Source: a virus | DNA length: 64,000 nucleotides | Virus record (IMG/VR): IMGVR_UViG_3300037502_001322 | Coordinates: 39,676 to 103,675 of that record | Strand: one strand, 5' to 3' | Shown here: positions 1,937 to 54,310 of the stretch, in pieces | Layout: each line of letters opens with the position of its first letter | Numbering within the stretch: the first letter of the stretch is position 1 | Program-made: the position numbers and the translations under genes | The notes under the pieces: model-generated | What the model saw: only the letters and a program-made list of their open reading frames with translations | Told to the model about the DNA's origin: nothing | Databases searched by the model: none

Positions 1937-2015
1937 ATTATTTAAAACTCCATAATAAAAGGTTGCTGTCTAAGAGCAACCTTGTTAATCTAAATTTATT
2001 TAATTAAACTGACTC

Positions 2016-3380
2016 TTAGCGGTCGAGAATAACACCAGCACGAATCTTGATGTAATGTACAGGAGTGCGATAAACTACTTCAACAAGCAGGTCGCGCCAA
2101 GTACGATTAGCCAGATCATCAGCAGTGATTTGAGAACGGTCGGGGATGATAATCTTAGGACGCAGGTCAGAAGAGCTTCCATCACTATTTTGAATAAGGC
2201 CATTCTTATCACCAAAGATTGCACCGTTAGCGATATCCCGATTCAAGGGATTATCATACAGAGCTTGAGCAATCAGGGCTGCACCATCTTCATCCATAGT
2301 AACCTTGGAAAGGATATCAGACTTACGTTTCAGCAGACCAAACAGAGACTCTTCAACACGAGAAGCGAAGTACAGAGCATAGTGCATATAGTCAAGAAAT
2401 ACACCAGAAGCCATACGACCGTCACGGTAGAAACCAACACCCTTATCCCGCAGGTACAAGTTACCATTCCAAGTTACGATATTAACTTTCTGGGAGTCAC
2501 TCAGTTTATTAGGAGTAATACCAACAAGAGTTTTACCGTGCATAGTGGAAGTGCCGGGGATAGTAGAAGCATATGCACCAATTACAGCAGCTTCAGGAAC
2601 AGTAGTATCCGCATCTGGTGCCCACATTGCAAAACAAGTGTTATTATAAGCCAGTTCAGCAACTTTCTGAAGAGTGTTGTTAAGGGTATTATCTCTAATA
2701 CCAGTGTCTTGAGAAGACCAAACAAAAATCTTACGATTGGTTTCAGCCCAAGCAGCGGCGGCAAGGACATCAACTTCAGTGTGACTATCCTGAGCTACCC
2801 AGAAGAAAGCATTGGTCTCTTCCAGAATATCATTCAGTGCAGTAGTCACACTCTCAAGAGTAGATGTTACACTCATGTTAGCGGTAACAGAAACAGTGAA
2901 AGTTGCATCAGGAGTAACAGTCAGGGTCAGGGTGCTAATACTTACAACAGCAGTAACTTGTGCAGCAAAAGCAGAAGCATCAATCTGATCTTTGATTTCA
3001 CCAAGAATAGTCGCTTCATCTTCAATGGTCGCTGTGAAAGTGAAGTCAGTATCTACAGCACCATCAGTGAAGGTCACAGTATAAGTTTCAGCAGCGGCAG
3101 TAGGAAGAGTAATAACCCATTCATCAACAGACCGTTTACCTACATAAATTTGAGAGGGTTTAGCAACACCGTTGAACATGTGGGTAGCTGCTTGATAAAC
3201 AACACCGTTTACATCAAAACCGTCATCCTCAAGAGCAGCAGTGGATGTGTAAACACGATAACGTTCAGAGAAATTATTATGAGAGGAGAGGAACAAAGGA
3301 ATGTCGAATTGAGCACCTTCAATTGCTGTTGCTCCAAGAAGCAACTGGACGTCAATTACATTAGGTTCAAAAGTAGCCAT
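2016..3380 (-). CDS. Contractile tail sheath protein (DUF3383-like)
   Basis: 454 aa; ERYRVYTS, PGTST.HGKTLVGI and G.MASG.FLD motifs typical of this sheath family. Confidence 0.9.
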   Translation of the reverse strand: MATFEPNVIDVQLLLGATAIEGAQFDIPLFLSSHNNFSERYRVYTSTAALEDDGFDVNGVVYQAATHMFNGVAKPSQIYVGKRSVDEWVITLPTAAAETYTVTFTDGAVDTDFTFTATIEDEATILGEIKDQIDASAFAAQVTAVVSISTLTLTVTPDATFTVSVTANMSVTSTLESVTTALNDILEETNAFFWVAQDSHTEVDVLAAAAWAETNRKIFVWSSQDTGIRDNTLNNTLQKVAELAYNNTCFAMWAPDADTTVPEAAVIGAYASTIPGTSTMHGKTLVGITPNKLSDSQKVNIVTWNGNLYLRDKGVGFYRDGRMASGVFLDYMHYALYFASRVEESLFGLLKRKSDILSKVTMDEDGAALIAQALYDNPLNRDIANGAIFGDKNGLIQNSDGSSSDLRPKIIIPDRSQITADDLANRTWRDLLVEVVYRTPVHYIKIRAGVILDR

Positions 3381-3426
3381 TATTTATAGGACTCCTTAAT
3401 TAAAAAGATAAAATTGTGTAAGTATT

Positions 3427-4101
3427 TTAAACCCACGTAGCTTCCCAAGTACCATCTAAGGGAAGTTCATAGTTAATATGTTCATAAACAAGATTACTGT
3501 AGGTAATTACCTCCGAAGTGACCCAATATATCCATGATGGGTTCACCGTAAAATTTAAAGGATAATTACCTCCTTCTTCTGTTGTTTTAACATTTACAAA
3601 AAGTTTTTCAGCAATTACGGAAGGAATTGGGTCAGCATCTGAAACACCTATATTAAGAACAACCGTCATTCTTGCTCTTAACTCTTTTTCAGCACCATCA
3701 AGAACAGTATCAGCTTTTGCTACAGAGGATACTTGTGAAACCCCTATCCCAAAATCAAGAAGATGTTTTCTCTTCAAATTGATGTGCTCAAAAGAATGAG
3801 TTATCTGCATTAATCTTGAAGTAGGTCTTCCTCTGAAGCTCATTACCTCTAAAAGGACTTCATACCAATTTATCGCAATCTGCCTATCCTGCGTATCCAA
3901 TTGGTCAGGATAAAAAGACCTTCCTGTACGATTAATATTAGTAACTTGAAGTCCTACATACTCTTCTTCGATTCGAGGCCAATCTCTGTCTAACAAGAAC
4001 ATCTTAACACCGGAAGGTGTCTCATCTGATATTGTTGCTTCTTTTATAAACAAACCCATTTGATTAAGTATGGTATCTTCTATATTATAAAATTCAGCCA
4101 T
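3427..4101 (-). CDS. Tail terminator / neck protein
   Basis: Position just upstream of the sheath gene; size and E.RA motif. Confidence 0.6.
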   Translation of the reverse strand: MAEFYNIEDTILNQMGLFIKEATISDETPSGVKMFLLDRDWPRIEEEYVGLQVTNINRTGRSFYPDQLDTQDRQIAINWYEVLLEVMSFRGRPTSRLMQITHSFEHINLKRKHLLDFGIGVSQVSSVAKADTVLDGAEKELRARMTVVLNIGVSDADPIPSVIAEKLFVNVKTTEEGGNYPLNFTVNPSWIYWVTSEVITYSNLVYEHINYELPLDGTWEATWV

Positions 4102-4110
4102 AATTAATCC

Positions 4111-4512
4111 TTATTCATTATTAGGGTCTTTGACAACAACAGCATGATAATGCGGTATTAGCTGATTGTTCCATTTCTTAACACTAATGACTGTGAATAG
4201 GGAAACACCATTGACACCATCTATTTCCAACTGGTCAGAGATTTGATTTGTCCCTTCAACTGCAACAGTTATTGGAGTATTGGTAAAAACGTTATATGCT
4301 TCTTTTGCACGTAACCCCTCATCTAATACTTGTAACTGTTGTCCAGTTAGAGGTTGTACCGTGCAGCGTAATGCAGCAAAAGGTGTGGATGTTGTGCTCT
4401 CTAAGTCATTCTCAAAAACACCACCGGTTTCTTTTACAACAAACCTGTGATATCCTTGAAGTGTTATTCTTGGGATGAATCCGGAATTGCGGAGATAAGT
4501 GAATTGCAACAA
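4111..4512 (-). CDS. Head-closure / head-tail adaptor
   Basis: CTVQPLTGQQLQVLDEGLR..D.L...HYHAVVV pattern; neck cluster. Confidence 0.65.
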   Translation of the reverse strand: MLQFTYLRNSGFIPRITLQGYHRFVVKETGGVFENDLESTTSTPFAALRCTVQPLTGQQLQVLDEGLRAKEAYNVFTNTPITVAVEGTNQISDQLEIDGVNGVSLFTVISVKKWNNQLIPHYHAVVVKDPNNE

Positions 4513-4617
4513 ACCTCCTAAAAGATTTCTAAAGATTTATTAAATTGATTATTGACTTATAATCTCAGGATATTAACTTAACTAAGTTTAACACAATAGT
4601 TAAACAAATTCAACAAT

Positions 4618-5172
4618 TTACCTTTTCTTCTTAAAAGGATTGGATGTAAATGTATACTTATAAGGAGTATTCTTTGTGTAGCCGTAAGTTTTAGCATCAT
4701 ATCTCATTTTCCACCCGAGCCTAAACTTAAGACATTTTCCGGGTAAGGTTTTTATGAATGCCCTTATTTGGTAGTAATGTGTTCCCTTAATATACGTAAA
4801 AGACCACCCTGCTTTATAAGGGTCGTCGTTGCTGTCTAAGTCCCCCTTAACCACAATAGTTTCACCTTGTTCTATATGACAAGCTAAAACACTCCACGAG
4901 AAACCATAAGCAGGATTGCGGATCAACCACAGCATCCTACGGATATATTTAGGCCATCTTAGACTAACTACATTAACAAACCCGGAATCTCCATCTAAAG
5001 GAGCGTCCGGCGTTTGAAACCAAGATAAATAAGTGGGCAGTTTATCTTTACCTATAGCAAACAAAGGTAAGATTGGGCTGAGTAAGTAACACAAGAATAT
5101 CACAGTTAAGTGTATGGGTAGAATTATTATTGATAAAATAAACCCCCAAACAAGTTTAATTGATTGTTTCAT
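4618..5172 (-). CDS. Conserved phage membrane-anchored hypothetical protein
   Basis: N-terminal TM segment; WFQTPD.PLDGD and WL.RNPAYGF motifs. Confidence 0.6.
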   Translation of the reverse strand: MKQSIKLVWGFILSIIILPIHLTVIFLCYLLSPILPLFAIGKDKLPTYLSWFQTPDAPLDGDSGFVNVVSLRWPKYIRRMLWLIRNPAYGFSWSVLACHIEQGETIVVKGDLDSNDDPYKAGWSFTYIKGTHYYQIRAFIKTLPGKCLKFRLGWKMRYDAKTYGYTKNTPYKYTFTSNPFKKKR

Positions 5173-5174
5173 AA

Positions 5175-5645
5175 TTATTCCCCATCACCTTCATCCTTTC
5201 CAACTTTAAACTTAGAATCATTTCTTAATTGTTTTGTGTCAACAAGAATAGTGTCATGTCCTTTCTTAGCCACTGTCTCAGGTTTCAAAGGAATGAAGTC
5301 TTGACTGTCAATGGACTCTGCTATAGCCTTCTGTCCTAATTTGCCAATTTTGGTGTATGCGACATTGGGTTTGATTCCTAAAGCAATAGCATCACCTATA
5401 ACATCTGCAATACGGATATCACCGTACATATTATTACCAGCCATGGTCATAAAAGGACGAGAAGGAATATTATTTTTAGTAGAACCAAATTCATGAATAG
5501 CAGCTAAGTCGCTCATAGCTAATCCGGAAGATTCGTGAGTGTGTTCTTCGAAATATCCTATTTCAACACAGTTTTCTTCAAGTTCTTTTAGGTTATCAAA
5601 TATCTCATCCCATCTATCAAATTCAAAATAAGAGCTACCTTTCAT
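5175..5645 (-). CDS. Tail completion / neck protein
   Basis: AAIHEFG..IPSRPF and T..KKG....L.DT..L motifs. Confidence 0.75.
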   Translation of the reverse strand: MKGSSYFEFDRWDEIFDNLKELEENCVEIGYFEEHTHESSGLAMSDLAAIHEFGSTKNNIPSRPFMTMAGNNMYGDIRIADVIGDAIALGIKPNVAYTKIGKLGQKAIAESIDSQDFIPLKPETVAKKGHDTILVDTKQLRNDSKFKVGKDEGDGE

Positions 5646-5658
5646 AATAGCCTCTTAA

Positions 5659-6507
5659 TTAGAATCCAGCGGGAAGAGGAAGATCAGGGTTTCCTTCATA
5701 CCATGTAATATAAGCAGAGACTTGTTGAGATTGTGTGTCTATACCAACAGAGCTGAAACGCAGGAGATATGATGTGTTAGGTCTCATTATCCGTTCTTTA
5801 CCAACATCACCAGAACCACCAGTAGCTTGGTTTTGAGATGAACCAAAGAAGAAATCATCAGCGAATATTTTAGTTCCTACAGCAGTCACTGTTGGTGCAG
5901 ACAGTAGAGTAACTGTACTGACTTGTGGATTAATATCATTATGGTTTTGGAAGGGGTCTGAAACACCTCCAGTGTAAGTTGGAGAACGTCTGATCTGAGC
6001 AACAAGACCTACACCACTATAACTGAATGACCTTTCTTTAAGAATAACAGGTTTACTTCCAGTAACAAAGATAGAATCTATATTACCTGAGCCCGGAAGA
6101 GTTATCAAACGAGAGGCTTCAAATTGCAGCCCATTTTTGATGTTAGACTCAATATAAAACTGGACATTCATGGCTCTGTTACCATTATATATCCCTGCCG
6201 GGGCTGGTTCACTTCCTATATAATCATCAAGACGTTGAACACTAACTTTACAACCAATATTCTGTGCTTTAAGATAAACTCCTTTAGTCTCAGGAGATAC
6301 AGGGAATGTGTGGTTTACACCAGACCCATAAGGAGATAGAACAATACCACCAACATCTTCAGCTTGAGGTGCGATATCTGAGATATATACAGAAAGATAA
6401 CCAGAACCTTTATTTTGGATAATTAAAGGAAGTCCTTGTGGAAAACCTGTGACTTGATAAACATCAACCCATTGATTAACACCAACAGATATATCTAAAG
6501 TCGCCAT
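5659..6507 (-). CDS. Hypothetical virion-associated protein
   Basis: 282-aa beta-rich ORF in the head-neck module with SD AAGGA. Confidence 0.55.
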   Translation of the reverse strand: MATLDISVGVNQWVDVYQVTGFPQGLPLIIQNKGSGYLSVYISDIAPQAEDVGGIVLSPYGSGVNHTFPVSPETKGVYLKAQNIGCKVSVQRLDDYIGSEPAPAGIYNGNRAMNVQFYIESNIKNGLQFEASRLITLPGSGNIDSIFVTGSKPVILKERSFSYSGVGLVAQIRRSPTYTGGVSDPFQNHNDINPQVSTVTLLSAPTVTAVGTKIFADDFFFGSSQNQATGGSGDVGKERIMRPNTSYLLRFSSVGIDTQSQQVSAYITWYEGNPDLPLPAGF

Positions 6508-6525
6508 AATGTGTTATCCTTATTG

Positions 6526-7044
6526 TTAGTTATAGAATCGACGACGAGGTGATTTAAAGTTTGAACTATAAATGTTATCTGGACAAAACTCGTCAGAGTA
6601 GAACTCTCCTAATGAATATCCGTTGCCACGAGAGTCAAAGTCATTCTTAACGCGAGCAACTTCTTCTTGTGAAACACCACCAACGATAATGTTATTGAAT
6701 GTGGATTTAGTTAGCGATGGGTCAACAATGTTAGGGTTAGCTAAAAGGTACTCTAAGAACTTACGATAACCAGTTGAAGGGTCTGCATCAGTCCTATCAA
6801 TCTGAAGTTGTCCTTCCATCTCATAGTGCCTACCAGAGATAGCTTGTGTGGATAGTTGAAGAATAGTCCAGTTGAGTGTGTCAACCATTGCATTATAAAT
6901 GACGATATAATCATTATCTGGGGTTGACGCCAACTGAGTTTCCCAACGAATGACAAATAAGTTAATCATTGTGTCAGGAATCAGGACTGTGTCAGGAAGA
7001 AAGAGTCGAATATAATCAACTTTCTCTTGTGTGGTGAGAGCCAT
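6526..7044 (-). CDS. Head-tail connector/adaptor
   Basis: First structural gene after the capsid/endonuclease pair; C-terminal GGVS..E motif. Confidence 0.6.
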   Translation of the reverse strand: MALTTQEKVDYIRLFLPDTVLIPDTMINLFVIRWETQLASTPDNDYIVIYNAMVDTLNWTILQLSTQAISGRHYEMEGQLQIDRTDADPSTGYRKFLEYLLANPNIVDPSLTKSTFNNIIVGGVSQEEVARVKNDFDSRGNGYSLGEFYSDEFCPDNIYSSNFKSPRRRFYN

Positions 7045-7199
7045 TATTAACTCCTTGTTTAATAAGAGAGATTATCATTTGATTTGTTATTTAAACAAAC
7101 ATAGTTTAACATATTCTTAAACCAAAAGAAATAAAACACAAAACAATCTGAGGATTGGTTAATGAAATATATTGACTTTCATTTGGATTTGATATAAAA

Positions 7200-7230
7200 G
7201 AAAACCATCTATCGGTTAGGACAGATGGTT
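7200..7230 (-). terminator. Intrinsic terminator
   Basis: AACCATCTGTC-loop-GATAGATGGTT followed by a T-run on the minus strand. Confidence 0.65.
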
Positions 7231-7288
7231 AAGAATGGCAATATAAATTATAGTGTAAATTATAATATTAACTACTGATAGTTTATTA

Positions 7289-8638
7289 TTACTCTTTATA
7301 TTTGTAGTCCTCTGGATTCAAACCGTAGTTAGTTTTAATATAGTCGAGAATCTTGGGTAAATTTTTGACTTGAGTTGTTTCTGTGTACCCATCAGGCATT
7401 GTATTTTTAGTTACAAACTTAGTACCTACCAACTTCTTAATCTCACTCTCCAACTCTCGTATAAATCTTCCATCTGAAGATTTAAACTCATACAATATCC
7501 TTGGAACATATTTAGTGTACCTTCTCTGGTATGAAACCCTACCATTAACATCAAGGTTAGTTATTCCGTATTTTAAGAATGATAAGTTATCTTTATTCCA
7601 CACAACTAAGTACAACGAACCCGGTTTTATATTATTAAACCCTGCTTTTGCATGATTTGGACAGCCACTACCGTTCAAATGAGATGTAGCGGACTGTACA
7701 AAATATTCTGAACAAACTTTACAGTAAATCTCTACTTTATATTTAGCTTGTACGTATATTGTATTTGAGTAATCATACTCGTTATCTGGATGTACTTTCT
7801 TAGCTTTCATTATAAACTCTTCGATATTACTAAGAACTTGTTTCCTTTTAAATTCCTTTAAGCACAACGGGCAGCCTCCATTACCGCTAAGATGAAGGTG
7901 AGGTAGTTGCTCAAACTCATGGGAATGTTTATTACATATAATTTTAACTTTTGTCTTTGTATTAAGATATATAGCATTTCTATAATCATATTTATCACCG
8001 TGCATCTTTACAGCACGACTAATAAAAGACTCGATGTTTCCTCTACAAGAATCTTTTGCACATAAAGGACAGCCTGAACCAAGCAAGTGTTTATTGGGAG
8101 TCTGTAGGAATTCTCCGTGCAATTTACAAACTATAGCTACTTTAGTTGATACGTTTTTATAATCAACTTTAGAATAGTCATATTTGTTATTGTGTATCAC
8201 TGTAGCATCATTTGTAAAAGATTCTGCACTTCTTTTCTTACCGCAAGGATGGCACTTTTTATGATTTGCTCCTTTCAAATGAGAATTAGGAGTTTGCTCA
8301 AAATGTTCTTTACATTTATTACACCAAATAGTAACTTTTGTTCTGGTATTTTTATAGATCACTTCAGAATAATCATATTTACTCCCATGCTTTTTCTTTG
8401 CTTCCTCTATAAAACTTTCCTTATCTACAGCTTTGTACACGTCTCCACAGAGACGACAGCCACTCTTCCCATAAATGTGGCTTGAAGGTGTCTTCTCAAA
8501 GATAATATTGTGTTCAGGACATATTATTTTTACTTTAGTTATATTATTTTTGTACTCTACCAATGAGTAATCATACTTTCCTTTACCGTGAACTTCCTCG
8601 GCGTGTTTGATAAATTCTTCTTTTGTTTTTCTTGTCAC
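7289..8638 (-). CDS. Free-standing homing endonuclease-like protein: five DUF723-type zinc-ribbon repeats plus C-terminal GIY-YIG-like nuclease domain
   Basis: Five repeats FI..A...H..KYDYS...Y.N..TKV.I.C..H..F.Q.P..HL.G.GC..C; tail LYLV..LKYGITN..R..E. Confidence 0.75.
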   Translation of the reverse strand: MTRKTKEEFIKHAEEVHGKGKYDYSLVEYKNNITKVKIICPEHNIIFEKTPSSHIYGKSGCRLCGDVYKAVDKESFIEEAKKKHGSKYDYSEVIYKNTRTKVTIWCNKCKEHFEQTPNSHLKGANHKKCHPCGKKRSAESFTNDATVIHNNKYDYSKVDYKNVSTKVAIVCKLHGEFLQTPNKHLLGSGCPLCAKDSCRGNIESFISRAVKMHGDKYDYRNAIYLNTKTKVKIICNKHSHEFEQLPHLHLSGNGGCPLCLKEFKRKQVLSNIEEFIMKAKKVHPDNEYDYSNTIYVQAKYKVEIYCKVCSEYFVQSATSHLNGSGCPNHAKAGFNNIKPGSLYLVVWNKDNLSFLKYGITNLDVNGRVSYQRRYTKYVPRILYEFKSSDGRFIRELESEIKKLVGTKFVTKNTMPDGYTETTQVKNLPKILDYIKTNYGLNPEDYKYKE

Positions 8639-8654
8639 ACTTTTCTCCTGATAT

Positions 8655-8700
8655 AAAATAACCCTATCCAGAATTATATCTGGATAGGGTTTAATGTCAA
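8655..8700 (-). promoter_or_regulatory. Capsid-gene terminator hairpin with embedded sigma70 promoter for the endonuclease gene
   Basis: 13-bp stem 8660-8672/8679-8691 with loop TATAAT; TTGACA at 8700-8695 (16-bp spacer); ATTTT tail. Confidence 0.7.
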
Positions 8701-8725
8701 GAGTTAAATTGTAATTTCGAAACTA

Positions 8726-10025
8726 TTACACGAGCACTGCGGTACTGTGTACGATAACCTCCGGCTTCACAGGAACAGCAAGAACGGAAGTTTCGCTCTC
8801 CAGTCGGTAAGAACGGTTAAAACTATCTTCCTTATAAAGGAGAGTCAATTCTTGACCGGGCTGGTTAGCCATAGCAGCGTCATCTGCTGGAGCAAAGTAC
8901 AGACGGAACATATCATCGTTAGAGGAAACCCAAGGCATAACTACGGCCTTATCAGCATCCAAATAATCGTTGATAACTTCAATTATAAACAGACCTTTGT
9001 GGCTGAAAGTACGGTTGATAGCGTTACCACCCAGTCGCTTACGCAGAGGGTCTTGTTCACTGGAGTAATACTGGTATGCGGCCTGCACGATAGGATGCTG
9101 AATGAGCTTACTAAAGTAAGATTTACCAGCAAACATAACCAGTTGGTACTCAGTCATCATATCCTGAGCATTTACAGCAATGTGCTGACGAGCTTCTTCC
9201 AAAGTCTCAAAGGGGTCAGTGGTTGCATCAGTCAGATCAACACCAACCTGCTTCTTAGTAACACCAAAAGCGGTGTAGTAATCGTATGCAGGTGTCACAC
9301 CCTCACCTTCATAGGAAGTACCGTTGAAGATACAAGCAGACAGTACGCGCTCTTTCAGTTGAGCGTGCATACGGGTAATACGTTGCATGATGCGGATAAC
9401 TTCATCTTGCAGGGTTTTGGACTCATCACCAGAACCATACTTGCGAAAGTTCTGAATGTCTTCAGGTCGAATGTTACGCCTTTTATTCGAGTAAAGTCGC
9501 TACACTTTACCCCGTTCTCTTATGAACTGCTTATAGTTTCCTATAAGAGTAGACTATATCACGGTCTTCGATTAAAATCGTTAAGACCCCTACCACTTCG
9601 AACACCAATCGCTTGTGTTCTACTCCCACTCACGGGATAGTCGTTGAACCTTCTTCTCTGTGAGAAGCTTGGCTGCTGATTGCCCTCGTCTTGACCGATA
9701 CGTTAGGGGTTTCCAGCAATTCAATAGGTTTTCACTTAATCATTTCTGATAAAGGGGACTGCATTCAATCCAGAGGGAAAAACGGAACGTTGAAGTTCAC
9801 AGTTTGCGCGGTTTCAGAAGAAACGAAATTGCGCTCGCCGCCCCTACTACGTGCAGCAAACAAACCGTTAACTTCTTGAACACGTTCTACTTGGGCGACA
9901 GTAGTAGAAATATTATGAACACTGAACATATCCATACCGGTCAGCAGGGACCAAGTACGTGGCAGTAAATTGATCTCCGAACTATAATCCAAGAGCAGGA
10001 AATCGGATGCGCGGGTAGTTGCCAT
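8726..10025 (-). CDS. Major capsid protein, spliced: exons 10025-9768 and 9478-8726 (336 aa)
   Basis: Removing the group I intron restores ..NVPFFPLD|RNIRPEDIQNFRKYG.., a Phage_cap_E-like sequence; follows the decoration and scaffold genes. Confidence 0.92.
9479..9767 (-). ncRNA. Group I intron (IA-type, ORF-less, 289 nt) in the major capsid gene
   Basis: P1 GGAU|..GUCC with U.G pair; P AAUUGCUGGAAA; Q AAUCAGCAG; R GGUUCAACGACUA; S GAUAUAGUC; P7.1/P7.2 insertion; terminal G; frame restored on splicing. Confidence 0.92.
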
Positions 10026-10101
10026 TATTTAAAACTCCTAAATGAGAAAAGTTTATCTATTGTAGATATCTATTATTGAAATAAAATGCTGTTAATAACT
10101 G

Positions 10102-10527
10102 TTAAGCTTCAACGGCGGCGGCAGTGCCAAACACTTTATCAGTAACTTTGTTAGCACCAGCAGCTTCAAAAGCAGCGATAGCGGTAGCAGAAGCAGCTTT
10201 AGCAGCACCAGTAGTGCCGTCAGCCATCTTCACGTAGTTCTTATTCACGGTAACACCACGCTTAGCAACAACCAGAACATGATCCCCAGCAGCCAGACCG
10301 TCACCTTGGTCAACACGAACGTCAACCAGAACAGCAACAGCGTCAGCTTCAGTGGTAGAGGCGCCATCTACTACGTTAATCAGTTTAGTACCGGAGACTT
10401 CCAGCAGCATACCAGCGGTAGAAGCGGCAGTAACGGTCACAGTAGCTTCTTCGAAAGACCAGCCCAAATCGCTTGACTGAACACCACCGAGAACTACATC
10501 ACTATAAAATTTTTCAAGAGTAGCCAT
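10102..10527 (-). CDS. Head decoration/stabilisation protein
   Basis: 141-aa Ala-rich ORF with high-expression codon bias, directly upstream of the capsid gene. Confidence 0.7.
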   Translation of the reverse strand: MATLEKFYSDVVLGGVQSSDLGWSFEEATVTVTAASTAGMLLEVSGTKLINVVDGASTTEADAVAVLVDVRVDQGDGLAAGDHVLVVAKRGVTVNKNYVKMADGTTGAAKAASATAIAAFEAAGANKVTDKVFGTAAAVEA

Positions 10528-10590
10528 TTAATTAATTTCCTTTATTAACGTTAATATTAGTTTTTTGTTTGACAGGTTTAACCTAAACGA

Positions 10591-11721
10591 TTAAAGCCAT
10601 TCTTTCTGACCAAACTTAGCGGTGATTCGCTCAGCAAGGCTTGATTTCTTAATAGCGGTTTGGTCTTCTTCTTTAGATTCTTCAGCACCAACTTCCGCAC
10701 CCGGATTAGCAATAGCAAACTCTTCTTTTGCTTTATTCAGTTCTTCTTGAGCTTTCTGGAGCAGACCAACCAGAGTGTCCACAACGGGATTGTCAACGTT
10801 TTCCATCAGACCTTTAACCAGTTCATCTTTTTGTTCATCAGCAACAAAGGTCAGAGATTTGGTCAGGGATTGGAAGGACTTTTCCAGATTAGCTTTTTGA
10901 GCTTTTTCAAGTTCCTCAGCACGAGCTGCTTTCTTTTCCAGCTCTTCCATTCGCTTCAGAAGTTCCATATATTCAGCAGATTTGGTGACATCGGAAACAG
11001 GAGCTTCTGTTTTCTCTACTTCAACCTTTTCGGCATCAACTTGAACATCTGCTTTTTCAAGCTCTTGTTCTTGCTTAACTTCAGTTTCAGAACTCATTGA
11101 GTTATCATCCTCTTGTTTTTGAATTTCTTTCTTGGGTTTAGGTTTGTTTGAATAAGATTTAGGTTTCTTAGATTTTTCAATCTCTTCGATTGATTCTTGA
11201 ATCTTCAGACCTTGTTCAAACTTGATTTGAGTTTTAAGAATCTCAAGATATTCTTTAGGGTCAACACCATTAAAGTCTTTGAATGCTTCAAGAGATTTCA
11301 TAAGTTTGATATGAGAAACTTTTTCGTCCAGATATTCCCGATGTTGTTCAGGAGTATGTTCGTAGTGATTCTCTTCTTCATATTCTTCTTGTTCTTTCAG
11401 GTAATACTCAAACTCGGTTTCCATTCCAAGAAGGTGAGTCAGCTTTTCAGCATCACTCCAATAAAGACCAAAGAAACGAACAAGGAACTCTTCCATTGAA
11501 AGTTCGACAGTGACTTGAGACAAAGCTTTAAGAATATCAGCGTTAACCTCAATATCCTCTGACTTCATAAGCAGTGCAATATCTTTCCAACCATTAGCAC
11601 CATGACCTTGTGCTCGGTGGCACACAGCCAGATGGGAACCTTCGTGGTCAAAACTCACATCGGTGATTTCACTAAAATTCTCAAGGTCTTTAAGAATCTT
11701 ACCTTTATTTTTGATTGCCAT
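10591..11721 (-). CDS. Prohead scaffolding protein
   Basis: Glu/Lys-rich coiled coil between the protease and capsid genes. Confidence 0.75.
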   Translation of the reverse strand: MAIKNKGKILKDLENFSEITDVSFDHEGSHLAVCHRAQGHGANGWKDIALLMKSEDIEVNADILKALSQVTVELSMEEFLVRFFGLYWSDAEKLTHLLGMETEFEYYLKEQEEYEEENHYEHTPEQHREYLDEKVSHIKLMKSLEAFKDFNGVDPKEYLEILKTQIKFEQGLKIQESIEEIEKSKKPKSYSNKPKPKKEIQKQEDDNSMSSETEVKQEQELEKADVQVDAEKVEVEKTEAPVSDVTKSAEYMELLKRMEELEKKAARAEELEKAQKANLEKSFQSLTKSLTFVADEQKDELVKGLMENVDNPVVDTLVGLLQKAQEELNKAKEEFAIANPGAEVGAEESKEEDQTAIKKSSLAERITAKFGQKEWL

Positions 11722-23082: not shown

Positions 23083-23436
23083 ATGTTCTATGAAGAGTTT
23101 TATGAACCAAACAGAGTGTGGTTGGATAGTGCAACTTCAGAGAAGGTTTCTAAAGGTGCTTACTTTACTGAGTGGAAGTTCTTGACTGAAGGTAGTGATG
23201 CAATTTTCCATGTTTCTCACAGTCCTGCTACGGTAGTCATAGATTTTGAGAACAACGGTAAATATGGTAGGTTTGTGGCTTGTAATTTCAGAGAAGACCC
23301 TACTAACAGAAAACTACTTGCATTGCAATACTTTGAAGACTGGACTAAACCAACTGAACAAGAGAAAGATTACTTTGAGATGATTTATGGTGTTAGAATT
23401 CCTTGGAGTGTTGACACACCTTTTGTTATGATGTAG
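23083..23436 (+). CDS. PTxEExDY-motif family protein 1
   Basis: YFEDWTKPTEQEKDYFEMIYG; SD AAGGAG. Confidence 0.75.
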   Translation: MFYEEFYEPNRVWLDSATSEKVSKGAYFTEWKFLTEGSDAIFHVSHSPATVVIDFENNGKYGRFVACNFREDPTNRKLLALQYFEDWTKPTEQEKDYFEMIYGVRIPWSVDTPFVMM

Positions 23437-23647: not shown

Positions 23648-23842
23648 ATGGATTTTTATGATAGAAAGAAAATACGAACAGAATATTATTTTAAATTTGT
23701 TTACAAGTGGAAACTAAAAGAATGTGTTGCATGTAATGGTTCTGGATGGTACGATAGTTGTGATAAATACGGTGATAGCATTCCCTGCGGAGCTTGTGAA
23801 GGGACAGGCAAAGAGAGATATAAACCGAGTGAGGAGAAATAA
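23648..23842 (+). CDS. Small DnaJ-type zinc-finger protein
   Basis: Two CxxCxGxG motifs; SD AGGAG. Confidence 0.7.
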   Translation: MDFYDRKKIRTEYYFKFVYKWKLKECVACNGSGWYDSCDKYGDSIPCGACEGTGKERYKPSEEK

Positions 23843-24384
23843 TGACAACAGTAATTATTGATACTAAACGTAAGACTATTTACACTGACTCTCAAGCAAC
23901 AAACCAAAATGGAAGAAAAGAGCAGGTCAACAAGGTTGTTAATTTTCACAATATTGCTGTAACCGGTGCAGGTGACTTGAAAGATTTGCATAATGTAGCA
24001 GAAACAATCCGTAGAAGTTCATTTAGGGTTAGTGATTTTACAGAGCTGTATGAACCTTTTAAATTTAAACCTTTCTTTAACAGTATGAGTAGTATATTCG
24101 TAGTGCAAAGGTTAAGTGAAGATTGTTTTAAGTATTATATCGTACAGCAGGAAGTGAAGAAAACTTGGTACGGTAAACGTAAACCAGTTGTTACCTTGAA
24201 GAAAATAGGTCAAACTTGGTCTTGTGCTTACAATGGTTACTATATAACCGGCTCTGGTGCGAGTTATGCGATTCCTTTGTTGGTTGCAACAGGTTCACCC
24301 AAAACAACAATTCGCGTGATTTCTAAGATTGATGCCAACACAGATGATAATGTTAATTCTTTTTGCTATGAGGATATGACTTAA
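23842..24384 (+). CDS. HslV-like Ntn peptidase, paralog 1
   Basis: N-terminal (M)TT, DSQ.T, conserved K, GAG, TGSG..YA, D.NT. Confidence 0.65.
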   Translation: MTTVIIDTKRKTIYTDSQATNQNGRKEQVNKVVNFHNIAVTGAGDLKDLHNVAETIRRSSFRVSDFTELYEPFKFKPFFNSMSSIFVVQRLSEDCFKYYIVQQEVKKTWYGKRKPVVTLKKIGQTWSCAYNGYYITGSGASYAIPLLVATGSPKTTIRVISKIDANTDDNVNSFCYEDMT

Positions 24385-47825: not shown

Positions 47826-48896
47826 TTGACTACAATCGCACTTAAAGATAATTGCATGGCTTCAGACGGCCAAGTCACTCTGGGGAATCGTATTGACTCC
47901 TATAACCAACGTAAAGTATTTGAGGTTGCTGGGTGTCTTGTGGGGTTCGCTGGTCGGTTCAGCTCAGCTCTAAGATTTTTGGCTTGGTTTAAAGATTATA
48001 TGCAATCTGTCTCAGCTCAAAATATGCACCCAGAAGTTATAGTTTCTATTCCTGAGAATCTGATTGACGAAGATTTTCAAGCTGTTGTTGTCTACCCTGA
48101 TGGTGAGACTTATCTATTTGAGGGTGGAGATAGAGCCTTTAAGATTGAACAACCATACTCCATTGGTAGTGGTGCTGATTACGCAGTAGCGGCTATGAAA
48201 GCAGGAGCTACAGCAGAAGAAGCTATCAATATTGCTAAAGACCTTGACGTATATTCTGGAGGTGAAACGTTTGTTGTTGAACTTGCTGAAGAAGAACCTG
48301 AGCTGACCCGTGAAGACCTTGAAGAAATGACAAAAGAAGAACTCATCGATCTTCTCTTTCCCGAAGATTGTGAGTGTGAAGATAAAGATGAAGAAAAGGA
48401 GTCCGAACCTGAACAAGTCGAAGAAACGAAACCTAAATCGTCAAAACTCGCAGAGGCGATTAAAGAGGTTTATGGACTTGAAGAAGAATGCTCAGATGAT
48501 ATCGACGCCAACGACTACTTCGGAGTTAAGCAACAAGGAACACAAGAAGAGATCAAACAAGCAGGACGATTGAGCAAAGAAGCTAAGATTAATGAAGCAC
48601 TAAAAGAGTATGGAGTAGTTTATAACAAGACGGCTGGTGTTTACACCAAAGGAATGATTGAGCTTGACTACAAAGACTCTTGCTTTAAATTTACAGGGAG
48701 TTCGGTGTGGTTTAAGATTAATGAGGATACCGTTGACCTTATGGTATCACATATGACGCTTAGTGAACTTAAAGGTGTGTGCGATTCATTGGATATCAAT
48801 TACAGTACCAAAGTTAATAAAGCTATTCTTGCTGAAAGGATTATGTTTGACATTGAAACTTGGACCTGTGTGATGGACGAAATCTCTTTTGAATGA
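47826..48896 (+). CDS. HslV-like Ntn peptidase, paralog 2, with acidic linker and C-terminal Rho-N/HeH-like motifs
   Basis: (M)TTIA..ASD.Q.T..K..VGFAG..IGSG..YA.AAM.AGA.AEEA..IA..LD.YSGG. Confidence 0.85.
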   Translation: MTTIALKDNCMASDGQVTLGNRIDSYNQRKVFEVAGCLVGFAGRFSSALRFLAWFKDYMQSVSAQNMHPEVIVSIPENLIDEDFQAVVVYPDGETYLFEGGDRAFKIEQPYSIGSGADYAVAAMKAGATAEEAINIAKDLDVYSGGETFVVELAEEEPELTREDLEEMTKEELIDLLFPEDCECEDKDEEKESEPEQVEETKPKSSKLAEAIKEVYGLEEECSDDIDANDYFGVKQQGTQEEIKQAGRLSKEAKINEALKEYGVVYNKTAGVYTKGMIELDYKDSCFKFTGSSVWFKINEDTVDLMVSHMTLSELKGVCDSLDINYSTKVNKAILAERIMFDIETWTCVMDEISFE

Positions 48897-49128
48897 TATG
48901 CAGGACAACTTAACAATAAAGGAAGTCGTTACTAATGATATACCACACAAGAAATCCTCTTGGGACGAAGTGTTCAGGTATGCTCTTGATAAATACAAAG
49001 GGAATGAAGAAAGAGCTGTGAAGTTCTGTCGTGGCTGGTTCTCTGCTGGAGAAGTTATGAAAGCTAATAAAGATAAATAGTGTTTGACAATATAGGCTAA
49101 GTGAATTATAATCTCTACATCTTAACTG

Positions 49129-49671
49129 GTGTGGAGATTTTGTTTTATGGACTTAGCTATAGTAGAAGCTGTAATAATATCTTTAACAATAACAGCTATT
49201 GTTTACTATTCAGTATGCGGGTTTGTTAAGTACAGCGAATTACGGCAGTTAAAGAAAGATTTAGATTCATACTATTTTGTCGTGCAAATAGAAAAGAGCT
49301 TATATTTAGACGAGAGTTTCAGATTTAGAGATCTTAATCTGCCGTTTATAGCTCGGCAAATAAAATTAAATCATTATTGTGGTAACAACACATATATTAG
49401 ATCTGATGTAGCTAAGAAGTATAAAGAGAAAGGTATTTTAAATTATTCGGAACAGCAGAAAGTATATACTAAAGATTTTATCTCAGACTATGCAAGATTT
49501 AAACATCACATACCTAAGCTACCTAAATATGAGTATTACTTGATTTATAAACCATTATCAGATTTGAAAGAATATTTTGAAGATGTTGACAAACCTACAC
49601 AAGATGAAATAAACTACGTCAAGATGGTTTTACCTGAAAAAGAACAAAAATACTATAAGGAGTTAGACTAA
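49129..49671 (+). CDS. PTxEExDY-motif family protein 2 (N-terminal TM)
   Basis: YFEDVDKPTQDEINYVKMVLP; upstream promoter-like TTGACA..TATAAT. Confidence 0.7.
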   Translation: MWRFCFMDLAIVEAVIISLTITAIVYYSVCGFVKYSELRQLKKDLDSYYFVVQIEKSLYLDESFRFRDLNLPFIARQIKLNHYCGNNTYIRSDVAKKYKEKGILNYSEQQKVYTKDFISDYARFKHHIPKLPKYEYYLIYKPLSDLKEYFEDVDKPTQDEINYVKMVLPEKEQKYYKELD

Positions 49672-49799
49672 TGATAACTGCACTAATCTTTATACTGCTG
49701 GAACAATTCGTAGCGGACTATACTGGATGGTTACTTGTCCTTCCTGTTTTGTTTGACTTAGTGTTAATAAGCAAACTTGATAAATAAGGAGAATAAATA

Positions 49800-50300
49800 A
49801 TGAATAATTTTGAACTGCATGAAGAAGCTGAACTGCTTGCTGACACTAAATCCAGTTATGAGCTTGCAAGACAACTTGTAAAAGTCTCTCATGAATTAAA
49901 TAATATTAAGAACAAACCATTGAAAGATACACAGAAACTACAAATGCAGTGTTTGAATAAATTCTTAGATGATTTAGGTTTTTATAAAGATATTTTGGCC
50001 TCTCACGACACTTATATTAATGAGTGTAATAATAACACTGAGGAAGAGATTAAAATAACTTTTAACAACGCAGTTAAACTCTATAACCTAACGCAACCTT
50101 ATTTGTTGGCTGGTGTTAAAGGTAAAGTGATCATTAATGGATCTTCAGTTCAAGAACTAAAGAACATGATAACCAAATACAAGATTTCAGTTTTCGCATT
50201 AGAAGAAGCCATGAATAATAAGGCAATCAAGAGAATTTATCTTCAACATAAGAAGAAAACTAATAAGGTTATCTGTCAGAAGCATTTAGTGGAGTTCTAA
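49800..50300 (+). CDS. Hypothetical protein
   Basis: SD AAGGAG. Confidence 0.6.
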   Translation: MNNFELHEEAELLADTKSSYELARQLVKVSHELNNIKNKPLKDTQKLQMQCLNKFLDDLGFYKDILASHDTYINECNNNTEEEIKITFNNAVKLYNLTQPYLLAGVKGKVIINGSSVQELKNMITKYKISVFALEEAMNNKAIKRIYLQHKKKTNKVICQKHLVEF

Positions 50301-50695
50301 TGGTATATTCACATTTTGGTACTTTTTTGACGATTCTCAAAACAAAAGATTGGGCTTTGGCTGATGTTGCTGTGCATAAAGGTAAATTTGTTTTCGGTAT
50401 TACATCAAAACGATTGCCTGCTAGTTTAGGAATTATTTATTTAGAATTATTAAATGACAAGACTTCTGTGGTTGTGTATGAGAGCTTCTATTTTAAACCA
50501 ATGTCAACTTGCTTTGAGTTTTTCGGAGACTATTTTGAGAGCTGGGCTAAACCTACTGAACAAGAGAAAGATTATTTAGACATGATGTTCCCTGAAATGG
50601 AAGCCAGCAAGTATTTGTTTTCCTCAAGCATAGAAGATATCTTAAAAGAAGAGTTATGCTGTGTTACTAAAGTGTTTTCAAAGTTTGGAAACTAA
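50300..50695 (+). CDS. PTxEExDY-motif family protein 3
   Basis: YFESWAKPTEQEKDYLDMMFP. Confidence 0.75.
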   Translation: MVYSHFGTFLTILKTKDWALADVAVHKGKFVFGITSKRLPASLGIIYLELLNDKTSVVVYESFYFKPMSTCFEFFGDYFESWAKPTEQEKDYLDMMFPEMEASKYLFSSSIEDILKEELCCVTKVFSKFGN

Positions 50696-50698
50696 GTT

Positions 50699-51210
50699 AT
50701 GAAAAACAATAAAGATATTAAAGAGACATACAAATACGAATGTCATTCTTTTCTTCCACTAAAAGGTGTAGGTAAACTATATTGTGTTTACTGTGGATTA
50801 GTTAACCTTAATAATGACCCTACCAGATGGGCAGTTAAAATGGGTTGCAACTATAAAGACCATGTTTCTTACAGAAATAAAATGAAGAAAGGGATAAAAT
50901 GAAAAGAAAGCTAATTAAAAGAAACAAACAGAATTACACAAGACTGATACAGAAAGCTAAGAGTTATGGTTTCAGTCTTAGCATACTGTCAGGAATCTTA
51001 GAGGGTAATAAAGAATTGAAATATTACACTCGAATGCGAAAACGTTATGGTGAAGTCTTTCGCTGGGATTTAGTTGTCTATAAGGATTCCTCTAAATTCA
51101 GAGGCTCAGAGATTGTAAGTGTTCCTATTTATACACCTAAACCACACAACAAATTCTTGAACATGTGGGTCTGGTGTGATATAAAAGATAAACCAGATAA
51201 TGAGGATTAA
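50699..51210 (+). CDS. Two small hypothetical genes (50699-50902, 50899-51210)
   Basis: ATGA-coupled ORFs. Confidence 0.55.
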
Positions 51211-51375
51211 TGATGCCTTATAATACGAACATTTCTCTTTCTATAATAAGAAAAGCACTTAAAGCTTTTAAAGAAGGAAAATCTATAGATGATTATGACA
51301 TACCTAATAATATAAAAGAGTCAATAAAGAGAAGAAAATACTCGAGAGAAGAGTTAAGTAGATACTGGAGGAAAG

Positions 51376-51552
51376 ATGGGACTTGATGAAACTAGGATAA
51401 TTATTAAGTATGAAGAGTTTGAAGGTGAAAATTTGTTTATCGGAAAAATAAAAGGACTTAATGACATAACTGAGTTTGCAGATACCTATGAACAATGTTA
51501 TAATCTGTGTCTGTCAACATTAGAAACTTATGAGGAGTTTAATGGTGCATGA
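51376..51552 (+). CDS. Stand-alone HicB-like antitoxin domain (58 aa; not in ORF track)
   Basis: SD GGAGG; RIIIKYEEFEGENLFIGKIKGL.DI.EFADTYE....L....LE. Confidence 0.55.
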   Translation: MGLDETRIIIKYEEFEGENLFIGKIKGLNDITEFADTYEQCYNLCLSTLETYEEFNGA

Positions 51553-51922
51553 ATTGGTTCCGAGTTGTGTAGACGTTTATATACTCACTCAAGAAATAAA
51601 CCGCAAATTTACACAAGGTAAGGTGTGCATTGTATTCCACCCTAATAAGTATACATACTTCAAATACTTACTTGTGGGAGGGACTAGATCATACAAATAC
51701 GGTAAGCTTAGGTTTCATTCTTCAGATTATTTAAATCTTCCTATTATTCCAATAAAAAGCTATTTCTTAAACATGACTAACCCCACTAAAGAGGAATTAG
51801 ATTATATAAATATGACCCACCCCAACATATCTCTCGAATATGTCAACACTTATAGCAAGGATATTAAAAACATAGGGGAAAGTCTTTATTGGGATAATGT
51901 GATTAAATTTTTATTTAGATGA
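51530..51922 (+). CDS. PTxEExDY-motif family protein 4 (start probably 51542)
   Basis: YFLNMTNPTKEELDYINMTHP. Confidence 0.72.
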   Translation: MRSLMVHELVPSCVDVYILTQEINRKFTQGKVCIVFHPNKYTYFKYLLVGGTRSYKYGKLRFHSSDYLNLPIIPIKSYFLNMTNPTKEELDYINMTHPNISLEYVNTYSKDIKNIGESLYWDNVIKFLFR

Positions 51923-52022
51923 TTAAGGAGAGTTACGCACATCAGATTAACTCTTTTAAAGAAGAGACTAAAGCAACTAAGTGGGTGAAATCTAAATATA
52001 AACGATAGGGGACAAATAAACA

Positions 52023-52391
52023 ATGATAGTTAATGGTGAACGTAGAAATAGATTGTGGGACCATGCAACAAACCAGCCTTGGAGTATGTTGTATGATAGA
52101 GGTTGCCCATCAAAGTCGTATCAATACTACTCAGAACTATTTAACATTGGAGGTAGATACTATTTCGTCACGCCATCAGTGTTTAAAGATTACATGGGAG
52201 ATATCTTTAATCCGACAGAAGACGAGAAGAATTATCTTAAACTTCTCATGGATGAACTTGTTTGGTGTTACTGGTTTGATTGGGATAAATTTAAAGAGTT
52301 AGCAAGAAATGATATTAAAACACGTCAGTATGCAACAAACAAATTTTACACGAGAAGGTGTAAAATATTGCACGAATATGGTTGGGAGTAA
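52023..52391 (+). CDS. PTxEExDY-motif family protein 5
   Basis: YMGDIFNPTEDEKNYLKLLMD. Confidence 0.68.
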   Translation: MIVNGERRNRLWDHATNQPWSMLYDRGCPSKSYQYYSELFNIGGRYYFVTPSVFKDYMGDIFNPTEDEKNYLKLLMDELVWCYWFDWDKFKELARNDIKTRQYATNKFYTRRCKILHEYGWE

Positions 52392-52394
52392 TAA

Positions 52395-52931
52395 ATGAAA
52401 GATGAATTTTATTTAGTTAGAAGACTGCTTCTATCAGGGGAATATGATTATAGAGTTACAGTGTCCCCTGATATTTTTGCTGATGTGGTCTGTGAGTTAA
52501 CTGAATATATTAAAGATTACAGCATTCCTGTACAAGAAGAGTTAGATTACTTCGAGTTAATATACGGAGAACAAGCAAGGGTTAGTGTTGAAACCTCAAT
52601 AAGGCATAGGAACCACGCTATTAATATTCTTAATAAGATAAAGGAGAGTAAAAAAAAAAAAATGAGAACAAGAGTGAATAGTTTATGGTTATCAAGAGTA
52701 AGCAGGAGTTATAAAAGAGATAGTATATATGTAGGACAGATATCACCTGTATTGGCTTATAGTGTAGAGAATATATTACCCTACTTTGAAGATGTTAATA
52801 ATATAAAACAAGAAGAAATAGATTATTTCAGATTGACTCACACAGAACAAGAAACTGAAGCTTTGATTATATTTATTAAACAGGAGAATAGATTAGATGA
52901 GCATTATAGAGATACTTATAGAGTCACTTAG
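52395..52931 (+). CDS. PTxEExDY-motif family protein 6 (two units joined through an A13 tract)
   Basis: YIKDYSIPVQEELDYFELIYG and YFEDVNNIKQEEIDYFRLTHT. Confidence 0.72.
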   Translation: MKDEFYLVRRLLLSGEYDYRVTVSPDIFADVVCELTEYIKDYSIPVQEELDYFELIYGEQARVSVETSIRHRNHAINILNKIKESKKKKMRTRVNSLWLSRVSRSYKRDSIYVGQISPVLAYSVENILPYFEDVNNIKQEEIDYFRLTHTEQETEALIIFIKQENRLDEHYRDTYRVT

Positions 52932-52963
52932 CTTCATGTTATTAATAAGATAAAGGAGAATAA

Positions 52964-53233
52964 ATGGAAAGAATATTCTTAATAAAAGCTTTACACGAAG
53001 AAAGCAGAAATCCTTATAAAGTGACTTTAGATACATCTTTACAATACAGAGGAAGTGTGTACGAGAAGCCTATGGAGATAACGCAACACTTCAAAAACTG
53101 GCAACACCCGTCTGTAGAAGAGTTAGAGTATTTTAATATTGTTTACGGAGAGTTGGCTCTTGAAGCTTATGGAATTTTCTTAGACACCTTTAGAGAAATA
53201 TTGAAAAGATTTATGGAGGATAGAGAGTTATGA
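52964..53233 (+). CDS. PTxEExDY-motif family protein 7
   Basis: HFKNWQHPSVEELEYFNIVYG; SD AAGGAG. Confidence 0.72.
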   Translation: MERIFLIKALHEESRNPYKVTLDTSLQYRGSVYEKPMEITQHFKNWQHPSVEELEYFNIVYGELALEAYGIFLDTFREILKRFMEDREL

Positions 53234-53502
53234 GTCAAGTTAAGTACTACTGCTTAAAATGTAGAAGAACTAACAATTGTTTGTGCGGAACAACTGAACT
53301 CAGGTTTACTATATCACCTAAACTTAGAGTACCTTCATCAGAGAACAAGGTTAAGTTTCGTAAATTTTTGGATGACTGCCCGATATTTCCTAACTGTGTA
53401 CCGGACAAGCTTAAACCTTTGTTCTTAGAGTTACTGAGAGAAGTGAAGTATTTTAATAAAATAATCAACAGGCTTAAATGGACTTACTTGGAGAAGAAAT
53501 GA
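53230..53502 (+). CDS. Cys-rich hypothetical protein
   Basis: ATGA-coupled; CxxC..CxC. Confidence 0.55.
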   Translation: MSQVKYYCLKCRRTNNCLCGTTELRFTISPKLRVPSSENKVKFRKFLDDCPIFPNCVPDKLKPLFLELLREVKYFNKIINRLKWTYLEKK

Positions 53503-54029
53503 ACAATAAGTTAAAGATTTATACAGGAATAGGTTCACGTAATACACCTGAAGATATTGGTGATATAATGAAGAAGTTAGCTTCTAAGCTTGAACAAGAA
53601 GGTTGGAAGCTTCGCAGTGGTGGAGCTGGTGGGGCAGACTCTTTCTTTGAAGCAGGAGTAACTTGTATTAATAACAAACAGATATACATTCCATGGAAAT
53701 CCTTCGGTGGACTAACACACAGTATTGTTGTCCCTGGTGATTATAAAACCAAAGCTGAACAAATAGCTTCTGAAATTCACCCGGCTTGGAATAAGTGCTC
53801 AAGAGGAGCTAAAGCTTTACACACGAGGAATGTGTGCCAAGTGTTAGGAGCTGATTTACAAACACCATCTAAGTTTCTTGTGTGTTGGGCAGAATCTTCA
53901 GGTGACTCAATTAAAGGTGGAACAAGAACTGCTTGGGAGATAGCTAAGATGCACAACATTCCTTGCTTTAACTTAAAGAATGAATTAGATTATGTTAGGC
54001 TTATGAGTTACATGGAGAATTATGAATGA
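53499..54029 (+). CDS. DprA/Smf-like (SLOG) Rossmann-fold protein
   Basis: YTGIGSR.TP, LRSGGA.GAD..FE, RN..QVLG, GGT..A. Confidence 0.8.
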   Translation: MNNKLKIYTGIGSRNTPEDIGDIMKKLASKLEQEGWKLRSGGAGGADSFFEAGVTCINNKQIYIPWKSFGGLTHSIVVPGDYKTKAEQIASEIHPAWNKCSRGAKALHTRNVCQVLGADLQTPSKFLVCWAESSGDSIKGGTRTAWEIAKMHNIPCFNLKNELDYVRLMSYMENYE

Positions 54030-54310
54030 AACCAGAAAGTCTTTACTTGAGAGAAGACGTTATCACGTCGACTAAACACCCAATTAAAGTTGTGAGCACA
54101 GCAAATGTCGTTTGGAAAGAAACAGGACTGACCTTTGCAAACTTGACTCTAAATTTTGAAAATATTATTGATTACTTCAGTGATTGCACACAACCAACAC
54201 AGCAAGAATTAGATTACTTTGAATTGAATCATGGTGTTGATGCAAGAAAAGCTTTTGATGCATGGTTAGATAAACACGATACACAGCTCAACTATAGTGT
54301 TCCTATTTAA
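54026..54310 (+). CDS. PTxEExDY-motif family protein 8
   Basis: YFSDCTQPTQQELDYFELNHG. Confidence 0.75.
   Translation: MKPESLYLREDVITSTKHPIKVVSTANVVWKETGLTFANLTLNFENIIDYFSDCTQPTQQELDYFELNHGVDARKAFDAWLDKHDTQLNYSVPI

Follow-up and report, generated by a model that had tools for sequence, protein, structure and literature searches.

Motif-encoding genes in the record

The stretch analysed here, hereafter the window, covers 64,000 nucleotides (bases 39676-103675) of the 103,675-bp linear virus record IMGVR_UViG_3300037502_001322, whose source run is a subsurface metagenome. The CheckV completeness of the record is 74%, and the size of the whole phage is estimated at ~140 kb. The genes for HslV-like proteins, a ligase, a ribonucleotide reductase, a terminase, a portal, and a tail sheath identify the phage as a large tailed myovirus that has Vequintavirinae and Phapecoctavirus-type phages as distant relatives. 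The window contains eight plus-strand open reading frames (ORFs), members A to H (Table 1), which encode small proteins sharing a 21-residue motif near the C-terminus behind N-terminal parts of very different length and sequence. Members B to H form a cluster, for which megablast against GenBank phages matched nothing. No described family contains these proteins; they are rare, unannotated, and lineage-specific.

The nine motif copies reported in an initial annotation, which was made from the sequence without database searches, were all found at the ORFs given there and align without gaps, as had been claimed. A 29-column hidden Markov model (HMM) built from these copies was searched against the six-frame ORFs of the whole record and retrieved 17 motif copies in 16 ORFs at E ≤ 1.6e-5; the following match had E = 0.57. 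The weakest real copy scored 20.9 bits compared to 7.3 bits for the best decoy in a reversed and shuffled set six times the size of the ORF set. The family had initially been counted as eight genes, which is too small, as seven further members are encoded on both strands outside the window (genome positions 235-10834).

The gene models required three corrections, while the ORFs as such were present. The GTG proposed as start of member B (49129) is most likely replaced by the ATG at 49147, and member D, placed at 51530, probably starts at the ATG at 51542, which is preceded by GAGGAG 8-10 nt upstream. The ORF of member F does contain two motif copies, but it consists of two units of ~89 amino acids (aa), F1 and F2, fused in frame by a run of 13 A at 52650-52662. 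With 12 instead of 13 A, two ATGA-coupled genes would result, the TGA of F1 overlapping the ATG of F2, and the latter is preceded by its own Shine-Dalgarno sequence (AAGGAG). The fusion may stem from slippage or from a wrong homopolymer length in the assembly. A comparable irregularity was seen outside the window in the member at genome 10536-10834, the N-terminal 40 aa of which lie in a different frame from the module half; relative to P0018, a 113-aa metagenome relative, the frame shifts near 10649-10655, and a pseudogene, an assembly error, or slippage could be responsible. A 260-aa ORF at genome 2098-2880 overlaps the member at 2717-3007 by ~160 nt on the same strand in another frame.

Conservation of the motif was also compared at the codon level, using 16 copies of 21 residues aligned without gaps and leaving out the second-unit motif of member F. 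Where two copies had the same amino acid at an aligned position, the codon was identical in only 49% of cases. Synonymous codons thus vary freely, and selection therefore acts at the protein level. A DNA-level repeat or mobile element was ruled out as the source of the motif by the freely differing codons at conserved residues.

Table 1. Family members and selected neighbouring features. Positions refer to the window unless marked as genome positions (whole record); motif positions delimit the 63-nt coding stretches.
Feature	Coordinates	Strand	Remarks
Member A	23083..23436	+	117 aa; motif 23329-23391, then ...GVRIPWSVDTPFVMM tail; NxxWL...WWNG subfamily
Member B	49147..49671	+	174 aa from ATG 49147; putative hydrophobic N-terminal anchor; motif 49573-49635
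Member C	50300..50695	+	131 aa; motif 50531-50593
Member D	51542..51922	+	126 aa from ATG 51542; motif 51761-51823
Member E	52023..52391	+	122 aa; motif 52191-52253
Member F	52395..52931	+	178 aa; tandem units F1 52395-52661 and F2 52662-52931; motifs 52506-52568 and 52782-52844
Member G	52964..53233	+	89 aa; motif 53087-53149; compact predicted model (AF2)
Member H	54026..54310	+	94 aa; motif 54173-54235; start overlaps stop of DprA/SLOG-like gene 53478-54029
Further member	genome 235-930	-	
Further member	genome 2717-3007	-	
Further member	genome 4442-4828	-	
Further member	genome 5081-5425	-	
Further member	genome 7974-8498	-	
Further member	genome 9440-9832	+	
Further member	genome 10536-10834	+	
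Sigma-70 promoter-like site	49084-49112	+	TTGACA-17-TATAAT; consensus match only (12/12)
DUF7390 protein	49800-50300		E = 1e-18
UPF0150/HicB-like ORF	51376-51552		58 aa; E = 4e-4, under the Pfam cut-off
HslV-family peptidase gene 1	23842-24384		phrog_1040; two genes past member A
HslV-family peptidase gene 2	47826-48896		phrog_1040; ends 230 bp upstream of the cluster

A conserved C-terminal module

Residues were counted by motif position in 60 units from this genome and from other sources, which gave the module consensus h-x-x-Y-F-x-D-W-x-x-P-T-x-x-E-x-D-Y-F-x-M-h-x-G. The glutamate at position 12 is present in 60/60 units and never replaced by Asp or Gln. It is followed in the degree of conservation by Pro8 (59/60), Phe2 (58/60), Thr9 (52/60), and Met18 (50/60). 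Somewhat more variable are Phe16 (47/60), Tyr1 (46/60), Tyr15 (46/60, Met in 12), Gly21 (45/60), Asp4 (44/60, Asn in 12), Trp5 (42/60), and Asp14 (42/60), and position -2 is hydrophobic in most of the 60. The positions flanking the motif are near random across the units. Pro-Thr-x-x-Glu is a classical helix capping box. According to the helix-capping rules, the Tyr/Phe/Met/Ile positions should be located on one face of the helix that follows. The invariance of Glu12 appears to exceed the demand of a helix cap alone.

The placement of the motif in the C-terminal half, which had been pointed out in the initial annotation, holds throughout: it ends 6-45 residues before the C-terminus in 60/60 proteins, behind N-terminal parts of 13-278 residues. 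Past Gly21, two main continuations are found. Member A and most metagenome members carry a tail of the type x-R-(L/I)-P-W-S-E-E-x-P-F-(I/V), and most members of the window cluster continue with an amphipathic helix. The proteins are acidic, with a median isoelectric point (pI) of 4.8 and a pI below 6 in 93%; the module itself has a net charge of about -4 and is ~19% aromatic.

Structure predictions and fold searches

Member G (89 aa) was modelled with AlphaFold2 (AF2) from a 25-row family alignment, with a predicted local distance difference test (pLDDT) score of 88 and a predicted template modelling score of 0.79. In this model, two N-terminal strands are followed by a turn formed by the first half of the motif, a helix (residues 51-61) corresponding to the second half, and another helix (63-87). 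For member A, the prediction was confident solely at residues 80-117 (pLDDT 81-92), which comprise the module; this pattern may merely track where the alignment is informative.

No convincing relative of the fold was found. The best match of the G model in a Foldseek search of the PDB had an E-value of 1.7, the BFVD fold search gave 0.29 at best, and the wide VIA-align search a best Z of 3.6. The family profile matched PDB sequences with E = 0.77 at best, and the ESM Atlas returned nothing usable for the 89-aa member or the module alone. No F-box protein was among the fold matches of the G model and no F-box match was obtained with Pfam, although a missing match does not exclude the fold.

The in-frame fusion of F1 and F2 raises the idea that the module is a self-association element through which the paralogs form homo- or hetero-oligomers, the fusion being a single-chain dimer. 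An amphipathic and aromatic helix would suit such a role. We consider it highly unlikely, as the fusion hinges on the 13-A homopolymer. A homodimer prediction of G scored 0.01, which weighs neither for nor against self-association.

Relationship of the N-terminal parts

The N-terminal parts had been described as unrelated to each other. In profile searches, this held for the units of the window cluster (B to H, with F1 and F2 taken separately) but not for A, which is homologous over its full length with the out-of-window members J, M, and N. Compared alone, the N-terminal parts of the 60 proteins fell into 35 BLAST clusters, and within the genome a single pair (the members at 5081 and 4442) matched. 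An iterative profile search linked A, J, M, N, and about 20 metagenome proteins by the shared pattern NxxWL...WWNG, from which the full-length homology of the A/J/M/N subfamily follows. In the same search, the N-termini of the window cluster connected to their own orthologs only. Several short members share a weak LLxG..Y pattern, located 25-35 residues before the motif, which is not significant alone. The membrane anchor claimed for one member is in line with a hydrophobic stretch of ~24 residues at the N-terminus of member B, as read from its sequence.

As genes of similar size follow each other head to tail in the cluster, tandem duplication followed by divergence is the simplest origin, and we infer that the family expanded mainly in this manner. 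A possible, if rather unlikely, explanation goes further and regards all members as a plain duplicated family derived from one gene of ~60-90 aa. The motif would be kept merely as the nucleus required for folding, and every paralog would bind its own target by variable surfaces without any shared hub. The similar size and head-to-tail order of D, E, F1, F2, G, and H, the tandem units F1 and F2, and the full-length homology of A, J, M, and N would all be expected in this case. The predicted structure of G, one compact domain which includes the N-terminal strands, would be consistent with it as well, as would a weak similarity of the P0018 class to F1 and G that extends 30-40 aa upstream from the motif. 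In addition, the conserved residues are largely aromatic or aliphatic apart from the capping box. Plain duplication does not readily account for the N-terminal parts of the cluster units (B to H, with F1 and F2 separate) and of K, L, and O, which linked to no paralog in the iterative profile search (with a tiny database), or for N-terminal lengths of 13-278 aa across the family, membrane anchor included. The presence of Glu12 in every unit, never exchanged for Asp or Gln, also argues against it, and the strict C-terminal placement would be left unexplained.

Distribution of the family

When 1.84 billion representative proteins were searched with a 16-unit profile (E ≤ 1e-3), 58 proteins with lengths of 56-231 aa were matched, about 14 of them from this genome. 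When 20 of the metagenome members were looked up, they belonged to single- or two-member clusters, and a second sequence was available in only 2/20. The equal sizes of their contigs suggest that several metagenome contigs hold two to three members each. The metagenome protein P0041 shares a related N-terminal part with member E and is likely its ortholog, and member G is 52% identical to P0019. Contigs of a soil-metagenome relative show ~85-93% identity over parts of the cluster, leaving 51.9-53.0 kb of the window uncovered, which does not indicate absence.

Among 50,697 GenBank phage records, the module was present in three, namely Acinetobacter phage ABPH49 and the Serratia phages Kashira and ChuuTotoro (Vequintavirinae). 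Like the window family, ABPH49 AXN57872.1 and its counterparts in the other two phages carry the same module (IFVDWTKPTKEEGDLFQMIYP), here 13 residues from the C-terminus. Unlike in the window phage, there is one copy per genome, encoding a protein of ~260 aa of unassigned function, the N-terminal part of which is unrelated to any member of the window phage. With the 231-aa member of the window phage it shares 29 residues, restricted to the module. Searches with tblastn using members H, A, P0024, P0018, and P0019 retrieved this Vequintavirinae protein or chance matches to tape-measure proteins only.

The motif had not been recognised as a named domain, and the eight window proteins indeed reached at most 17.7 bits in Pfam-A compared to a cut-off of 26.3. 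For all 58 family members, two chance-level Pfam matches (E = 0.003-0.006) were obtained, and no family was reached. Matches in PHROGs were marginal, limited to the motif, and directed to families of unassigned function. For the ABPH49 protein, the match to phrog_12463 runs over the module region (207-249 of 279 positions, E = 1.3e-9), and window proteins matched profile positions 196-249 of 279 (E = 0.0062 for C, 0.14 for A). Since the match is confined to the module, the window proteins cannot be assigned to phrog_12463, and the match explains nothing because the function of that family is unassigned. The HMM search of phage proteomes, Pfam, and PHROG that the initial annotation had proposed thus revealed a rare family and no characterised domain of unrelated function. 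Such a domain had been named there as the first observation that would contradict its interpretation; as none was found, this objection does not apply.

Ten members were not recognised by the PADLOC models of known anti-phage defence proteins, the sole match being at E = 0.028 (11.9 bits). Viral contigs scanned with the proteins and with a degenerate DNA pattern contained no relatives; the pattern scan of metagenome contigs yielded three matches, all without the full module, and that of genome contigs two, in an archaeal metagenome-assembled genome (MAG) and an Anaerolineae MAG, which are probably due to chance. A phage family of such architecture was not found in the literature.

Genomic context of the cluster

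The cluster resembles a tandemly duplicated operon. Its genes form a single run on the plus strand in which stops overlap starts, and a Shine-Dalgarno sequence is recognisable in most cases. It is set among nucleotide-metabolism genes and small genes, not among structural genes, and is preceded by a sigma-70 promoter-like site (Table 1). Its expression is probably early, as judged from these sequence features; the sequencing runs listed for the record include no RNA run. Directly upstream of the first cluster gene, a 12-bp hairpin with a T-run was seen at 49110-49139, the 5' arm of which includes the -10 box.

As another explanation, the module could determine the fate of the proteins rather than act as an adaptor. 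It could be a degradation tag for the two HslV-like peptidases encoded by the phage or for host HslUV, an HslU-like docking tail, or a capsid-loading signal for ejection. Both HslV-family genes adjoin motif genes, and the module is always C-terminal. One subfamily ends with acidic residues followed by P-F-I-L-like hydrophobics (S-E-E-x-P-F-I-L-like), in some proteins exactly at the C-terminus. The C-terminal tail of E. coli HslU (...EDLSRFIL) docks into HslV, and the likeness to this tail, a loose one spanning 3-4 residues, may serve as a lead only. An F-I-L-type triad at the extreme C-terminus is found in only a few metagenome members. Most tails of the PF-I-L type extend 1-10 residues beyond the hydrophobic triad; members B to H end in helical or other tails, and A ends with PFVMM. 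Furthermore, seven members are located far from any HslV-like gene. In the Vequintavirinae, two of the three genomes with the module were checked for the HslV family (phrog_1040) without a match, so that the module is not tied to a phage HslV. Known degradation tags are short, unlike a module of 35 residues that is predicted to be folded, and promoter and gene context look early rather than late or structural. A sorting or fate signal of any of these kinds is therefore regarded as improbable.

As to the peptidases themselves, the product of the second gene (47826-48896) has an acidic linker and an additional C-terminal domain. No HslU-type ATPase was seen.

Comparison with known systems and proposed function

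Taken together, the data are best accommodated, with a probability of about 0.45, by lineage-specific, small, acidic, and probably early phage proteins whose C-terminal mini-domain would bind one common partner, whereas the front parts vary, and which serve as host-takeover adaptors or inhibitors. Each protein consists of a fast-diverging front part, which can be absent, short, long, or membrane-anchored, and a conserved C-terminal mini-domain of ~35-45 residues. The mini-domain is predicted to begin with a short hydrophobic strand or turn (h-x-x-Y-F-x-D-W), enter a helix at Pro-Thr-x-x-Glu, proceed as an amphipathic aromatic helix (D-Y-F-x-M-h-x-G), and end with either the G-x-R-(L/I)-P-W-S-E-E-x-P-F tail or another amphipathic helix. 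It would fold on its own aromatic core and provide one contact common to all paralogs. The partner, a single one from either host or phage, would be contacted through an interface that includes Glu12 and the acidic and aromatic face around it. The variable front parts would direct each paralog to a different second target or location, and the paralogs together would act as adaptors or inhibitors in host takeover or anti-defence. A shared function of the module is favoured by Glu12 being invariant and Pro8 and Phe2 nearly so in paralogs which cannot be aligned otherwise, by the strictly C-terminal position, and by the occurrence of the module on clearly unrelated long proteins.

Several points weigh against this proposal. 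The common partner is hypothetical, and early expression is deduced from one line of evidence, the match to the promoter consensus. Tyr1, Phe2, Trp5, Tyr15, Phe16, and Met18 are residues of the hydrophobic-core type, so that together with the Pro-Thr-x-x-Glu capping box the motif could be a folding nucleus only. Some members (A, J, M, and N) are homologs over the full length, and an entire domain of ~60-90 aa may be common to the short members, as hinted by the weak upstream LLxG..Y pattern.

The initial annotation had compared the family to adaptors of the F-box kind, in which many cargo-binding proteins plug into one hub, and this idea fits the architecture by analogy. Ankyrin/PRANC proteins of poxviruses are likewise encoded by a viral multigene family; a short docking element at their C-terminus is constant, while the front part, which binds the target, varies. 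The logic of these proteins and of cellular F-box adaptors resembles that of the window family, but the likeness is an analogy only, since no relation in sequence or fold was found (no Pfam and no fold match). To our knowledge, bacteria have no SCF ligase. In its strict form, the idea would make the module a portable docking domain with which at least 16 front parts, one of them putatively membrane-anchored, plug into a single host or phage hub, a phage counterpart of F-box/PRANC. We regard this strict form as unlikely. If it applied, the expansion and the rapid N-terminal turnover would be traces of an arms race with targets or defences of the host.

Another parallel is offered by the T4-type internal proteins, which are likewise small and fast-evolving phage proteins, otherwise unrelated, that share one short conserved segment and a common fate. 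The capsid-targeting sequence of T4 comprises ~10 residues, is N-terminal, and is cleaved by the prohead protease. The conserved element of the window family differs in being C-terminal in all 60 proteins and, according to the models, a folded module of ~35 residues, and the genes lie in an early-looking, non-structural cluster. The window family is thus a new family with an architecture analogous to both PRANC/F-box and T4 internal proteins and does not belong to the T4 type.

The family accounts for about one-tenth of the genes of this phage, and multigene families of small early phage proteins have repeatedly yielded host-takeover and anti-defence functions. The contrast between the invariant module and the freely diverging front parts is unusually sharp. 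Should the preferred explanation with a single hub be correct, the phage would re-target one host machine to many substrates, and the paralogs would provide natural variants for specificity mapping. If the motif is a folding nucleus only, the family would still represent a new small fold, the aromatic core of which is compact and probably folds by itself. In either case, it represents a new domain family suitable for databases, for which no relative was found in Pfam, among named PHROGs, or in the PDB.

Further features of the neighbourhood

Small genes outside the family are interspersed in the cluster. They encode the DUF7390 protein, the HicB/UPF0150-like ORF, zinc-ribbon-like ORFs, and the DprA/SLOG-like gene product (Table 1). 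One soil-metagenome relative joins window position 53502 to 54040 with 24 other letters between them and therefore lacks the DprA/SLOG-like gene between a 90-aa ORF and member H. Outside the window, the members are found among genes for HNH endonucleases, a MoxR-like ATPase, an endolysin, and a Dda-like helicase. No alignment at E ≤ 100 was obtained when the member at genome 2717-3007 was compared by BLASTP with a tail-tube-like ORF (window 1445-1936). The MoxR-like AAA ATPase gene (genome 5530-6681; phrog_1297; Pfam bpMoxR barely under the cut-off) adjoins the member at 5081-5425. In Serratia phage Kashira, a gene with the annotation putative metallopeptidase is found ~2 kb away from that of the module protein.

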